From positions 65,440 through 129,439 of the IMG/VR virus record IMGVR_UViG_3300009506_000004: 64,000 bases of DNA; one strand, given 5' to 3'. Below the pieces are notes generated by a model. It was given only the letters and a program-made list of their open reading frames with translations. It was not told the origin of the DNA and did not search any database. Below are positions 48,870 through 54,202 of this stretch, in pieces (the stretch's first letter is position 1; each line of letters begins with the position of its first letter). Source of the stretch: a virus. The translations under genes were made by a program, and so were the position numbers.

Positions 48870-49453
48870 TAGTTATACTTTTAGTCCTTATAATTTGTTC
48901 TACTACTTATGCAACTCCTCCCTTGTATGCTGTTAGAATTTGTTGTTATGATAATGATGATGCTATAATAGATAGTTGTGGTAGTGGTTCTCTCATAAAT
49001 AAAGAATATGTGATAACAAACCACCATGTAATAAAGGATGCAAGACTTGTAAGAGTTTTATTTAAAGATTGGCAATACGTCCCTGGAAGAATCGTTAAAA
49101 AAGATGCAAAAGTTGATTTGGCTTTAATTAAAATTCCAGAACAATCCAGAACTACTATTAGTTTTGCACCAAAGACAAGTAAAGGTGATATAGTTACATT
49201 ATTTGGATATGGACAAGGTTTACCGGGAAAAGGAGTAGGTATTATAAATAGTTTTGTACGTCGTACACAAAATGGACCATTAATAAATATGGAAATTGAT
49301 GGTTATGCAGTACGCTCTGGAGATTCTGGTGGCCCCGTAATAGATAGTAAAGGTAGACTATCTGGTGTTATTTTTGGTGCTACTAAAGATGAAAGTTATG
49401 CTGTTCGTATTGAAACTGTCAAATCTTTTATAAAAGGATATATTGATGATTAA
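48866..49453 (+). CDS. Secreted trypsin-like serine protease
   Basis: Signal peptide; TNHHV, DLAL and GDSGG motifs. Confidence 0.9.
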   Translation: MIVILLVLIICSTTYATPPLYAVRICCYDNDDAIIDSCGSGSLINKEYVITNHHVIKDARLVRVLFKDWQYVPGRIVKKDAKVDLALIKIPEQSRTTISFAPKTSKGDIVTLFGYGQGLPGKGVGIINSFVRRTQNGPLINMEIDGYAVRSGDSGGPVIDSKGRLSGVIFGATKDESYAVRIETVKSFIKGYIDD

Positions 49454-49784
49454 TTGGACACCAATTTTAATCGAGCTATCCAATTTGACAAAAAATCATT
49501 TAAAAGGTAAACTTGTAGGAGACGGAGAAGGAATACAGCGAAGATATGATGTACTATTAAAACCAGATTTTATTTACCAAGATGGTATTGGTTCATATTT
49601 ATGGTGTAATTATTTATATAACTTAATAGAAAGAGCACTAGAAGAAGCAAAACATCCATTAAGCTTACCAAAAACAGTGCTATTAACACCTGTTATTGCT
49701 TATGTTGAAATACCATATTTAAGAATTGCTGTTCATAATGAAAAAAAGAAAGGTATGATGCTTGGCATTGAAACTGTATCATGA
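49443..49784 (+). CDS. Possible miniature capsid-fold paralog
   Basis: Weak by-eye match to the capsid C-terminus (PLSLP vs PLARP; LRIAVH..GMMLGIETV vs MRATMQ..GTKVVLDLL). Confidence 0.35.
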   Translation: MMINWTPILIELSNLTKNHLKGKLVGDGEGIQRRYDVLLKPDFIYQDGIGSYLWCNYLYNLIERALEEAKHPLSLPKTVLLTPVIAYVEIPYLRIAVHNEKKKGMMLGIETVS

Positions 49785-50095
49785 AAGAATTATTAACTGA
49801 ATTAGTTAGACGTATTATAGAATATATGGATGGGTCTCCAGTCGGCAACATGGGATCTTTAAATTCCATTAAGGTATCTTTTAAAAAAGATTTATTGATA
49901 GAAGATATATGGCTTCATCATATACTCCCAGTAATAGTAGATTTACAAATGTATTCTAAAGGAAAGTATATGTCTGCTCCACCTATGGATATTGAAAGTG
50001 ATTTTCTTAAGAAAACACCAAATCTATCCATTAAAATATCAGAAGATACAGTTTTTTCTGAAAAATATATATTAGAGTTTAGGAGTATTTTTTAA
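49781..50095 (+). CDS. Miniature capsid-fold paralog (putative)
   Basis: LNSIKVSF..IEDIWLHHILPVIVDL vs capsid LNQHMYAGF..LQDLIQVHLVPGMKAM. Confidence 0.45.
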   Translation: MKELLTELVRRIIEYMDGSPVGNMGSLNSIKVSFKKDLLIEDIWLHHILPVIVDLQMYSKGKYMSAPPMDIESDFLKKTPNLSIKISEDTVFSEKYILEFRSIF

Positions 50096-51052
50096 TGGTA
50101 AATATTTGGTGTGCTATCATATTAGCAGTGGGTATGTTTGGTATCGGAAATGGTTTAGTTCGTATTGCTGAATCATTAGAGCATATAAGAATCGTTTTTC
50201 CAAAATCTAAATTTACTTTTATGGTTTCTAAACAGAAAGATGAGGTAACAGGTGAAATCAATACACTATTGTTCTGAGTCAATCACACATATTGATGATT
50301 TAGATAAGATTTTGCGTCTTAAATGGTTTGGTTTTAGATTTAAACTTACACCTATTGATGATGATTATTGTAAAATAACAATTATATTTGATCCGAGAAA
50401 TTAATAAAATGAAACTTTTTAATGTATTATTAAATTATGAGTTACCTATAGATTTAAGTTTAGTTAATGCAGGTTTATTAGTTGACCTTAATTTAGTTGG
50501 AAATCTTAGCATAGCATGGGATCCAGATGGGCCAACAATGCTAACATTAACTTACGAAGATTTCAAAACATGTATAATAAACAGACATATTGATAAAGCC
50601 AAAATAAAAGAAGTTTTAGAGGAAAAATATGGAACTAAAATTTTTGGGGAGTATAATTAATGTACATAAGTTTAAATATATTAAATAATGCTGTTGTTGA
50701 GAATCCTGATGGCAGTAAACAATCAGTACAAGGATTACTTAAACTTAATATAAATGTTGACAATATTAATTTTATTATAAAACCACTTGGGCAGCCAGCC
50801 CTTGTTGTATCCAATGGTGTAAATTTTATAGCAACAGATAACATACCAGAAAATATTATTGGATTACATAGATTTCAAATTAAGGAAGGTGGGTTTGTTT
50901 GGCTTAGTCCAAAACATATAGTCTATTATGCAAGCACTGACGAAATAGGAATCTATCTTATAGGTTTTACTGGTGGAAATAGAGTTTCTATTAAGGCAAC
51001 TGGCCAAGAAGTTCATGATATGATTTCTGTAAGTATAATAACAACACCATGA
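50095..51052 (+). CDS. Small hypothetical genes (50095-50277 membrane protein; 50388-50660; 50660-51052 with an internal duplication)
   Basis: Co-oriented ORFs; 50660 contains two FlbD-like IN.D.I / LSPKHI units. Confidence 0.55.
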
Positions 51053-51294
51053 AAAGAAGAAATTTTTTAAAATTAGCGTCATTAGCTCCTTTAGTATTTT
51101 TAACACCATTACCTAAATTAGCACCAAAACCACAAGGAACACTTTGGACTACACACCAATTTGAAGAAAATGTAGTTATTAAAAATGGTGGACCATTAGA
51201 ATGGTGTATAGCAGAACGCTGGGCTGAAGAAAGTTTAAGTATATTAGAAGAAAATATGATAATATCAGAATTAATTCATAGGGATTTTATATGA
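51049..51294 (+). CDS. Tat-signal protein carrying a copy of the major capsid N-terminal segment
   Basis: MKRRNFLK twin-arginine motif; ERWAEESLSILEENMIISELIHRDF vs capsid EVWARESIAVLEENMIMGMLVHRDF (16/25 identical). Confidence 0.85.
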   Translation: MKRRNFLKLASLAPLVFLTPLPKLAPKPQGTLWTTHQFEENVVIKNGGPLEWCIAERWAEESLSILEENMIISELIHRDFI

Positions 51295-52720: not shown

Positions 52721-53103
52721 ATGTTAAGTAAGAAAGCAAAGAATAACATATTCATAACAGGAATCATCATAGGATTATGGCTTGTTTTATTTGGATTTGG
52801 TATACTAAATAAATGGTTCTTATTATCTGGTATGGGTATAATTATGACAGCAATAGTATTAGGATTATGGTAAATGTGTAAAATAATATCAAATATTGTA
52901 TTTTACATAACAATAATACTTAGTATCTTAATGTTAATATTTGGAATTATAGGAATTATAACAGAATGAAAAGACATACATTCTTTTTAACAATATTAAC
53001 AATTGGACTTGTATGTGCTTCAATTGGAGTTTATATTGATAATAAATGGATTGGAGTTTTAGGGATGAGTATTATGGGATTTTCAGCACTTATAGGAATA
53101 TAA
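52721..53103 (+). CDS. Three tiny membrane proteins (52721-52873, 52874-52969, 52966-53103)
   Basis: 50, 31 and 45 aa, highly hydrophobic and translationally coupled; the first and third share IGL...NKW...GM.I. Confidence 0.65.
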
Positions 53104-53107
53104 CAGA

Positions 53108-53587
53108 ATGTTAAGACGAGATCTTTTAAAATTTTTTGCTGCATTAGCTGTAGCACCAATATCTTCTTGTGTTAAGTCAGATGAGCCAAATGTACTAGAA
53201 GGCTCATGGGCTATGTTAGGTATGCAACATAGCCTGAAAAATGGGGATTTATTGTTTTCTACAGATAATACTGAATTATTAGTTAGACCAATTGATGGTA
53301 GTTTAACCTATACTAGCCGCATAGATATGGATGCTCTTCCTAAAACTAGGGGTGAATTAGGACTAGAACCAGAATTCAATGATATAATTGATTTTCATTT
53401 ATTGGTTGTAACAGAGAATTTAGATTTAGAAAAATTTAAGAAAATAAAAGAATCGCCCAAATTTAAGTTGACAACAAAAACAGATGGTCTATACTTCATA
53501 TTGAATGAAGCTTATTGGACTTTGATAAATCATAACAAGCAAGGTGATATGGAATCATTAGAAATAGAGGGTCTTGCAAAATATTAA
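53108..53587 (+). CDS. Tat-signal (lipo)protein resembling the tail tube protein
   Basis: MLRRDLLK plus ISSC lipobox-like Cys; VRPIDGSLTYT..L..RGEL vs tail tube VKMGDGNLVWT..L..RGNL. Confidence 0.65.
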   Translation: MLRRDLLKFFAALAVAPISSCVKSDEPNVLEGSWAMLGMQHSLKNGDLLFSTDNTELLVRPIDGSLTYTSRIDMDALPKTRGELGLEPEFNDIIDFHLLVVTENLDLEKFKKIKESPKFKLTTKTDGLYFILNEAYWTLINHNKQGDMESLEIEGLAKY

Positions 53588-53602
53588 AAGAAAGGTATAT
53601 GA

Positions 53603-54202
53603 ATGAATTATAATCTAGTATTTCCGCATGACTTTTCTAGAGAACTTTGGCATGAACTTATGAAACAAAGTAATGACACATTTGAGATTGTTCCTGGAAG
53701 TGTAGAAAATAAGAAGGATCCAAATATAAGTCAATTTTATGTAGCATTTCGTATACCAGAAAATCTAAGTCCTGAAGATATATTTTCTCGACATATTAGA
53801 CCAGCACTCATGTCAATGGCAACAGAGATACTTAAATTTTCAAATAAAGTAAAAGTTGGGCATTTAAATTATGTACCAAGTTTGTCAAAAATGTATACTG
53901 CTGGTGGAATACCTGTACTTGTAACTGTAAGTGGAGACCAAAAACAAGGATATATTTGTGCAATTAGAATTTTAGTTAAACGAGTTAATACCGTTTATTT
54001 TATATTTGGAAATAATTATACTCATGGTTATACATATAGAATAACTGAAACAAAAGAAACAGCTTTAAAAATAGCACTTGAATTAAGAAACAAAATTTTT
54101 AATCCAATTTGCCAAAACACAATCAGGCTAAAAGAAGATGGTACTGGTTTTCTTACTGGACTTAATTATAGAATTGACATCATGAAAGTGGAGATTGAAT
54201 GA
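53603..54202 (+). CDS. Miniature capsid-fold paralog with an extra C-terminal domain (putative)
   Basis: VFPHDFSRE ~ LVPEVWARE; QFYVAFRI..SPEDIFSRHIRPALMSMATEI ~ QHMYAGFVI..SLQDLIQVHLVPGMKAMGNGI. Confidence 0.6.
   Translation: MNYNLVFPHDFSRELWHELMKQSNDTFEIVPGSVENKKDPNISQFYVAFRIPENLSPEDIFSRHIRPALMSMATEILKFSNKVKVGHLNYVPSLSKMYTAGGIPVLVTVSGDQKQGYICAIRILVKRVNTVYFIFGNNYTHGYTYRITETKETALKIALELRNKIFNPICQNTIRLKEDGTGFLTGLNYRIDIMKVEIE

Follow-up and report, generated by a model that had tools for sequence, protein, structure and literature searches.

A gene for TatA, a pore component of the twin-arginine translocation (Tat) pathway, lies in the last 64 kb of the complete, 129,439-bp virus record IMGVR_UViG_3300009506_000004, which has direct terminal repeats. 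It is accompanied there by two genes whose products couple a predicted twin-arginine (RR) signal to sequence related to the phage's own virion proteins, namely the major capsid protein (MCP) and the major tail (tube) protein. These 64 kb, the whole stretch of DNA that was analyzed, are referred to below as the window, and open reading frames (ORFs) are named by their first position in it. The phage is a complete 129-kb siphophage, uncultured, with a GC (guanine plus cytosine) content of ~31%. Two DNA sequencing runs labelled as marine sediment contain the stretch and may be where it came from, and no RNA run was among those found to contain it. The tatA cluster is held by an array of small, tightly packed ORFs on the plus strand and the structural operon lies on the minus strand, as stated in a preliminary description of this DNA, which had placed the cluster opposite the structural genes. 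We tentatively favor the view that the three genes form an accessory export module, in which phage TatA and two Tat-signal cargoes built from the phage's own virion proteins would work at the envelope against rival phages; we judge this proposal only slightly more apt to fail than to hold. The genes in question are the following.

51049-51294, plus strand: ORF 51049 (81 aa), predicted twin-arginine signal, ~30-aa linker and 28-aa copy of the MCP N-terminus (nt 51205-51288)
52335-52505, plus strand: tatA, 56 aa (PF02416, 36.9 bits with a cut-off of 21, E 2e-9)
53108-53587, plus strand: ORF 53108 (159 aa), predicted Tat-signal protein with lipobox Cys21 (ISSC) and a mature part with a predicted minimal tail-tube fold

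The identification of tatA in the preliminary description is borne out by the match to PF02416, which exceeds the cut-off of that model; on TIGR01411 the protein scores 42.3 bits, under the cut-off of 53.9. Its layout is that of a TatA: an N-terminal transmembrane (TM) helix (residues 1-19 are TM-like) leads via an LLFG hinge to an amphipathic helix. The protein is 57-73% identical to four other TatAs, encoded on the viral contigs L039, L040 and L041 and on the metagenome contig L045 (73%), and the LLFG and RS.G columns are invariant among five viral or metagenomic TatAs. No TatC was detected in the complete 129-kb phage (PF00902 unmatched), and we infer that TatA must therefore use the TatC of the host. 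A scan of cellular genomes, one per species, with a pattern derived from these TatA sequences yielded 344 relatives, and of the best 79 of these 344 loci 78 were titled Planctomycetota and one Conexibacteraceae. Since 78 of the 79 best cellular loci belong to the Planctomycetota, the type of TatA points to a host or donor in this phylum, with the caution that the search pattern biases the scan. For an uncultured phage group, such a clue to the host is rare.

The likeness between the mature part of 53108 and the tail tube, which had been claimed in the preliminary description, concerns the following genes of the structural operon.

16223-19828, minus strand: tape measure protein (phrog_991, E 2e-20)
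21875-22603 and 21125-21862, minus strand: tandem paralogues of the major tail (tube) protein, 245 and 242 aa, assigned by synteny

The two tandem paralogues are 78% identical to each other and occupy the position of the major tail protein in siphophages, with two small ORFs and the tape measure gene following downstream. Neither the paralogues nor the tube family were named by Pfam or by a sequence search of solved structures, and phrog_1302 was matched weakly by 7 of the 21 members of the tube family. The putative identity of the 21125-22603 paralogues as tube proteins rests on synteny with the tape measure gene.

BLASTP of 53108 against all 445 ORFs of the window revealed no likeness to any of them, the tube proteins included, and a word-seeded protein search with 53108 returned only the query itself. 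An exhaustive HMMER search with 53108 recovered a 169-aa relative (P0004), and a profile search defined a family of five members of 159-169 aa, all beginning with M(L/I)RRD(F/L)LK. P0003 (5332 aa), which is without the matched stretch, and P0005, a 401-aa repeat protein with a match of 27 aa only, were left out of this family. Searches of viral contigs with P0004 and with the family profile gave no further relative. The family is known from viruses only; it was found in none of 401 sampled Planctomycetota genomes and within 3 kb of none of the 79 cellular tatA loci.

Alignment of the family profile to single tube sequences by hhalign resulted in probabilities of 14-27 over 107-109 colinear columns. 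Within a background of 111 phage ORFs, the tube paralogues ranked first and third for the 53108 family (scores of 29.8 and 26.9; Gumbel P of 8e-5 and 3e-4), the unrelated ORF 55049 scored 27.9, and the remaining ORFs reached at most 20.8. When the family profile was compared with a profile of the 21-sequence tube family, hhalign gave a probability of 89.7 (E 1.8e-6), and 89.0 in a repeat. With HMMER, the 53108 family profile matched 21 of the 38 related phage records at E values down to 2.7e-7; 19 of these 21 matches lay inside the mapped tube gene, and the other two in frames of 251 and 254 aa.

The AlphaFold2 (AF2) model of 53108 obtained with the five-sequence alignment has a predicted local distance difference test score (pLDDT) of 70.9 (80-92 in the core) and a predicted TM-score (pTM) of 0.60. 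The model, a beta-sandwich flanked by a single helix, can be superposed on solved tube proteins, and it replaced a single-sequence model with a pLDDT of 50, for which the Foldseek rows were meaningless. A VIA search of the AF2 model against 48,161 representative chains returned 50 rows with Z scores of 5.9-8.4, values of 7-8 being common for unmatched models. Phage tails, tailocins, contractile injection systems or Hcp/IglC of type VI secretion systems (T6SS) made up 49 of these 50 rows. The Foldseek rows with a probability of at least 0.75 were mostly phage tail, baseplate or Hcp proteins, including T5 pb6 and the SPR tube-DSR2 complex (8ygo_C). Nothing meaningful came out of profile searches of solved structures, whether the query was the tube protein, its family or the family of 53108. 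The claimed likeness to the tail tube is thus sustained along four independent lines, namely single-sequence alignment, profile-profile comparison, HMMER and the predicted fold, though not by BLAST, and these results indicate that 53108 is a reduced homologue of the core of the major tail protein of this phage. With siphophage tubes and Hcp (lambda gpV, SPP1 gp17.1, T5 pb6, T6SS Hcp) it has in common its predicted fold, together with the homology to the phage's own tube. Unlike siphophage tubes, it is without the N-terminal and inserted parts, carries a predicted Tat signal and lipobox, and is encoded in an accessory operon. Separately, an inserted segment of the tube paralogues shows weak similarity to MCP residues ~227-294 (hmmsearch E 0.0019; hhalign score 24.8) and is missing from the 53108 family.

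The second cargo, 51049, had been described as resembling the N-terminus of the capsid protein in its mature part. The MCP gene consists of two exons.

33023-34399, minus strand: MCP, P22-coat-like, exon 2 (phrog_283, E 7e-51)
35275-35325, minus strand: MCP exon 1, 17 codons

This resemblance was confirmed by both BLASTP and hhalign. Residues 53-80 of 51049 match MCP residues 2-29 with 16 of 27 positions identical (BLASTP, E 1e-10). Among all 445 window ORFs the match has an E value of 8e-9, and it was the sole pair found by BLASTP of the region ORFs; hhalign of 51049 against a 22-sequence MCP profile gave a probability of 97.8 (E 1e-12). The likeness covers MCP residues 2-29 only, and neither a full HK97 fold nor full-length homology to the MCP was found for 51049. 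The copied block is the most conserved N-terminal part of the MCP, and seven of its eight invariant residues are kept in 51049. In this block 51049 is closer to related MCPs, with which it shares up to 19 of 27 residues, than to the phage's own MCP (16 of 27). The identity between 51049 and the own MCP gene at codon positions 1, 2 and 3 is 0.52, 0.78 and 0.44, respectively; the peptide is conserved while synonymous sites are near saturation, and the copy therefore does not appear to stem from a recent duplication. In P22-type coat proteins, the N-arm is in contact with the scaffolding protein, a candidate partner for the copied block. No second small capsid copy was found in the related records, most of which are fragments, and G031 and G034 weakly match the linker of 51049 (E 0.002-0.004).

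Thirty-six viral contigs are related to the phage through the MCP. The MCP gene itself is split, on the minus strand, by an 878-nt intervening sequence (34397-35274) between exon 1 and exon 2, and the 17 codons of exon 1 match the N-termini of all relatives. The intervening sequence encloses an endonuclease VII/HNH ORF (34433-35206), and its boundaries fall after a U and after a G, in the style of group I introns; Rfam at gathering thresholds found no intron in the MCP gene, its matches being three tRNAs only. The capsid copy in 51049 begins within 1-2 residues of the junction of exons 1 and 2.

In the complete genome, all 746 ORFs with a length of 35 aa or more were scanned for an N-terminal RR-x-hydrophobic-hydrophobic motif with a hydrophobic stretch. 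This pattern was present in three of them, namely 51049, 53108 and one 38-aa ORF elsewhere. While 51049 sits 1.3 kb upstream of tatA, 53108 sits 0.6 kb downstream, and the chance of both RR ORFs lying within ~1.3 kb of tatA is ~5e-4 by rough arithmetic. The predicted signals read KRRNFLK in 51049 and LRRDLLK in 53108, with h-region hydrophobicities of 1.94 and 1.97, respectively. Residues R3, R4, D5, L7 and K8 are invariant in all five members of the 53108 family, the mature parts of which are just 20-37% identical; an invariant RR motif on diverged mature parts is the pattern expected of a selected signal. Judged from the sequences, the predicted Tat signals of 51049 and 53108 are not chance occurrences. 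The start regions of the two ORFs (51043-51074 and 53102-53133), bases upstream of the ATG included, are 78% identical over 32 nt.

The order of tatA and cargo recurs on the metagenome contig L045, which has a GC content of 52% and on which tatA and a short ORF are followed by a gene of the 53108 family at 655-1155. Because L045 repeats the tatA-then-cargo order at 52% GC, the pair is conserved across very different sequence backgrounds (31% versus 52% GC). The co-occurrence of tatA with RR-signal virion-like genes, which the preliminary description had proposed to look for, shows in the L045 pair and, in the form of RR-signal ORFs directly after tatA, at three of the four other tatA loci (two ORFs on L039, one on L041 and one on L045; not on L040). 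After the tatA-cargo pair, L045 encodes at 1152-3256 what by eye looks like a radical-SAM enzyme (CxxxCxxC motif) and a nucleoside diphosphate kinase.

A piece of capsid protein with a Tat signal was also encountered in G445, a complete 36-kb phage that is unrelated to the one studied here and that has the following capsid gene.

L151:1043-2005: MCP of G445 (phrog_1328, E 2e-93)

The predicted Tat-signal protein of G445 (150 aa, L002:4759-5208) shares 52% identity with 51049 in the signal peptide, and 45 of its residues are 42% identical to residues 87-131 of the MCP of the same phage (E 3e-7). No tatA was found in G445.

According to the preliminary description, up to three ORFs of the region without a signal are capsid-like.

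53603-54202, plus strand: signal-less ORF 53603 (199 aa), residues 21-76 resembling MCP residues 53-111
49443-50095, plus strand: ORFs 49443 and 49781 (113 and 104 aa), without support for a relation to the capsid

For 53603, hhalign against the MCP profile resulted in a score of 35.7 (E 2.4e-4, probability 44), compared with a mean of 13.4, a standard deviation of 2.4 and a maximum of 21.0 for a background of 108 other ORFs; the Gumbel P is 1.3e-5, or 0.0015 after multiplying by 111. Over the full set of 111 ORFs, the highest background score is 21-25. BLAST found nothing between 53603 and the capsid protein, and HMMER gave an E value of 1.2. The Atlas model of 53603 was of low confidence (pTM 0.40), and the look-up with it, with scores of at most 0.77 and TM of at most 0.39, provided no lead. 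On the strength of the profile comparison, the likeness of 53603 to the capsid is probable but unproven. In contrast, 49443 and 49781 gave E values of 5.9-12 against the capsid by BLASTP and of 0.79 and 0.11 against the MCP profile by hhalign, and they had no Pfam, PHROG or NCBIfam match. The notion of three cut-down capsids was rejected, with 53603 alone having any support; as an hhalign outlier this ORF can be weakly retained, and the other two are dropped on the basis of BLAST and profile results. In a greedy, low-confidence alignment, the start of 53603 (53603-53650) falls on the HRDF motif of the capsid, at the point where the 51049 copy (51270-51291) ends; it is as though a single capsid-like gene had been interrupted by 2.3 kb carrying tatA and 53108.

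The label of virion-protein mimics, which the preliminary description had given to all of these products, suits 51049 and 53108, which are built from own virion proteins and stand beside tatA; it applies weakly to 53603 and falls away for 49443 and 49781. The roles suggested there for the mimics (decoys, poisons of assembly, hitchhiker export, anchoring at the membrane) are hypothetical. The Tat pathway moves folded proteins and complexes across the membrane. From the genes, their homologies, the conserved RR motif and the linkage of tatA to its cargo, all of which are directly observed, we infer how the cargoes may be exported, where they may be located, what they may bind and what they may do. 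In the export module that we favor, phage TatA would insert in the host membrane, join the TatC(B) of the host and add pore capacity. The cargoes would fold in the cytoplasm and would then be moved to the periplasm, with the tube paralogue 53108 lipid-anchored at Cys21. Placed there, 53108 could engage the tail tip or the tape measure of incoming related phages and block the entry of their DNA, and the outcome would be superinfection exclusion by mimicry. An action of 53108 at the envelope is favored by analogy with exclusion lipoproteins of the Ltp type. Ltp of phage TP-J34 is reported to be an envelope lipoprotein that excludes phages (PMC3952083). Like Ltp, 53108 would be an envelope lipoprotein encoded by a phage, with the proposed task of halting DNA entry from incoming phages; unlike Ltp, which has a Sec-type signal, it has a predicted signal of the Tat type and a predicted tube-like fold, and its role in exclusion would be a functional analogy only.

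Several observations weigh against this proposal. Exclusion does not explain 51049 or 53603, because a periplasmic capsid peptide has no obvious target on an incoming virion. The capsid-derived pieces fit better with a decoy or hitchhiker role, in which whatever interacts with the conserved capsid block would be bound by the mimic and removed through Tat. Both ORFs are singletons, 51049 among the 5.8 billion proteins searched (44-142 aa) and 53603 in having no homologue among the 38 related records. The two predicted signals score 11.2 and 12.6 on the Tat-signal model PF10518 (threshold 22.7); on TIGR01409, 51049 scores 13.7 (threshold 16.7) and 53108 has no match. The lipobox (ISSC) is present in one of the five members of the 53108 family, the window copy only, and AxA-like sites occur in three of the others. 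Of the five AF2 models of 53108 one was confident, and Foldseek with the 53108 model returned no row at an E value of 0.001 or below (best 0.009). Moreover, relatives of the phage, including one complete 128-kb genome, are without tatA and without cargo, the cargoes on L039 and L041 are unlike the tube family or anything in their own (incomplete) records, and the phage has a GC content of 31% versus a median of 62% for the Planctomycetota tatA loci.

An explanation that accounts for the capsid-derived and the tube-derived cargoes alike is that the mimics act as cytoplasmic decoys, and we regard it as improbable. They would bind a host or rival factor that recognizes conserved virion blocks, such as a capsid or tube immune sensor or the scaffolding protein; the Tat signal would then tether the complex to the membrane or export it as a hitchhiker, with TatA adding capacity. 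In line with bind-and-export, the stretches of the MCP that were copied are its best-conserved ones, the unrelated G445 likewise joins a Tat signal to 45 aa of its MCP, and Tat hitchhiker export is established. A defense triggered by the tail tube, DSR2, has been reported as well (PMC10981675, PMC11087589). However, a mimic of the trigger could activate the sensor instead of blocking it, and G445 is without tatA. We also think it unlikely that the genes serve ordinary accessory secretion, with a host-derived TatA that props up the Tat system of the host or weakens the membrane in the timing of lysis, and with RR proteins that are periplasmic and have a role unrelated to their virion descent. 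Such a use would be consistent with the host (Planctomycetota) type of the TatA, with the three tiny membrane ORFs and the secreted trypsin-like protease in the same operon, and with the lack of any relation among the cargoes found next to other phage tatA genes. It is at odds with the linkage of tatA and the 53108 family, which is kept across contigs of 31% and 52% GC, and with the lack of an endolysin family in the flanking ORFs. The invariant capsid residues are retained in addition, which suggests that the copied surface itself matters.

That 51049 and 53603 are mere recombination scars, i.e., functionless remains of a broken duplicate of the capsid gene, seems very improbable to us. Their being singletons would agree with such an origin, as would the start of the 51049 copy 1-2 residues from the MCP exon junction and the low-confidence impression that 53603 begins where this copy ends. 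Nevertheless, each of the two reading frames is unbroken and fits closely into an operon in which starts and stops overlap, conservation reaches 78% at second codon positions as against 44% at third ones, and the same design occurs in the unrelated phage G445; the conserved 53108 family lies outside the reach of this explanation. A wider proposal, which we consider doubtful, is that phages of several lineages export purpose-built copies of their most conserved virion surfaces via the host Tat system, sometimes with a TatA of their own, and thereby trap rival tails in the periplasm or remove capsid or tube sensors or assembly partners as hitchhikers. If true, exported self-mimics would constitute a new class of phage warfare or counter-defense.

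All parts of the module are of known kinds, and the combined design was not found described in the literature searched. The phoD-tatAd-tatCd genes of Bacillus subtilis encode dedicated Tat components beside their cargo. As in that system, the gene of a Tat pore component here adjoins that of the RR-signal protein presumably served; unlike it, the present arrangement is phage-borne, has TatA without TatC, and has as cargo a copy of a virion protein, not an enzyme. In hitchhiker export, the signal on one protein carries a bound signal-less partner, as known for the small and large subunits of hydrogenases and for DmsAB. In a similar way, 53603 and other signal-less proteins could ride along, whereas the cargoes here, unlike hitchhiker substrates, bind no cofactor. 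For DSR2, the two reports name the tail-tube protein as the immune trigger and the phage protein DSAD1 as the countermeasure (PMC10981675, PMC11087589). In contrast to what is considered here, DSAD1 is neither a tube mimic nor exported, and no DSR2 is known in this host. The literature searched, outside which most subscription journals lie, contains no description of a phage tatA with Tat-tagged virion copies. In its available part, a 2026 review on Tat (PMC13673990) uses the word 'phage' four times, none of them on phage tat genes, and a figure legend in PMC10564846 annotates TatC in a marine virus; the available parts of PMC9004378 and PMC6802176 hold nothing relevant to phage tatA with virion copies. 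A nucleotide search of GenBank phages with the tatA region gave no match.

A phage with its own Tat pore subunit and Tat-tagged copies of its tube and capsid proteins implies that virion folds are put to an undescribed use outside the particle. Should incoming tails be blocked by the tube copy, this would be a new kind of superinfection exclusion, and if the mimics remove sensors, a new principle of counter-defense. With a TatA of 56 aa and a cargo of 159 aa, the module is small and directly testable, and it is a natural setting in which to ask if additional TatA increases the capacity of the Tat system.

Further ORFs of the cluster are located between tatA and 53108.

52453-52716, plus strand: ORF of at most 87 aa that overlaps the 3' end of tatA, start uncertain
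52721-53103, plus strand: three tiny membrane ORFs (50, 31 and 45 aa) with TM-like segments

The several tiny membrane proteins mentioned in the preliminary description were recovered as ORFs with TM-like segments at 50095, 52721, 52874 and 52966. The products of 52721 and 52966 share 33% identity across 43 aa (E 0.05), and the tiny membrane ORFs are missing from the L045 module. At the position of 52453-52716, L045 has a 69-aa ORF that by eye is alike only where it overlaps tatA. The head of the operon is formed by a gene for a trypsin/HtrA-like serine protease (48866-49453, plus strand; PF13365, E 6e-20) with an N-terminal hydrophobic signal-like segment. PHROGs yielded nothing useful for ten ORFs of the region, and scans of the ORFs 48866-55049 with Pfam, PHROGs and NCBIfam found no endolysin family. 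A lysis cassette as the principal explanation of the cluster was rejected, there being no lysin family nearby; o-spanins are short, unlike the 159-aa 53108 with its predicted tube fold.

The structural operon comprises the following additional genes.

35394-36287, minus strand: scaffolding protein
37449-39230, minus strand: portal
39243-40952, minus strand: large terminase

Three phage tRNA genes, Pro-TGG, Met-CAT and Thr-TGT, are located at 2542-3179 on the minus strand. Elsewhere in the window, a 132-aa ORF (59326-59724, plus strand) is 73-81% identical to each of the two tandem repeats in a 288-aa ORF (572-1438, minus strand).

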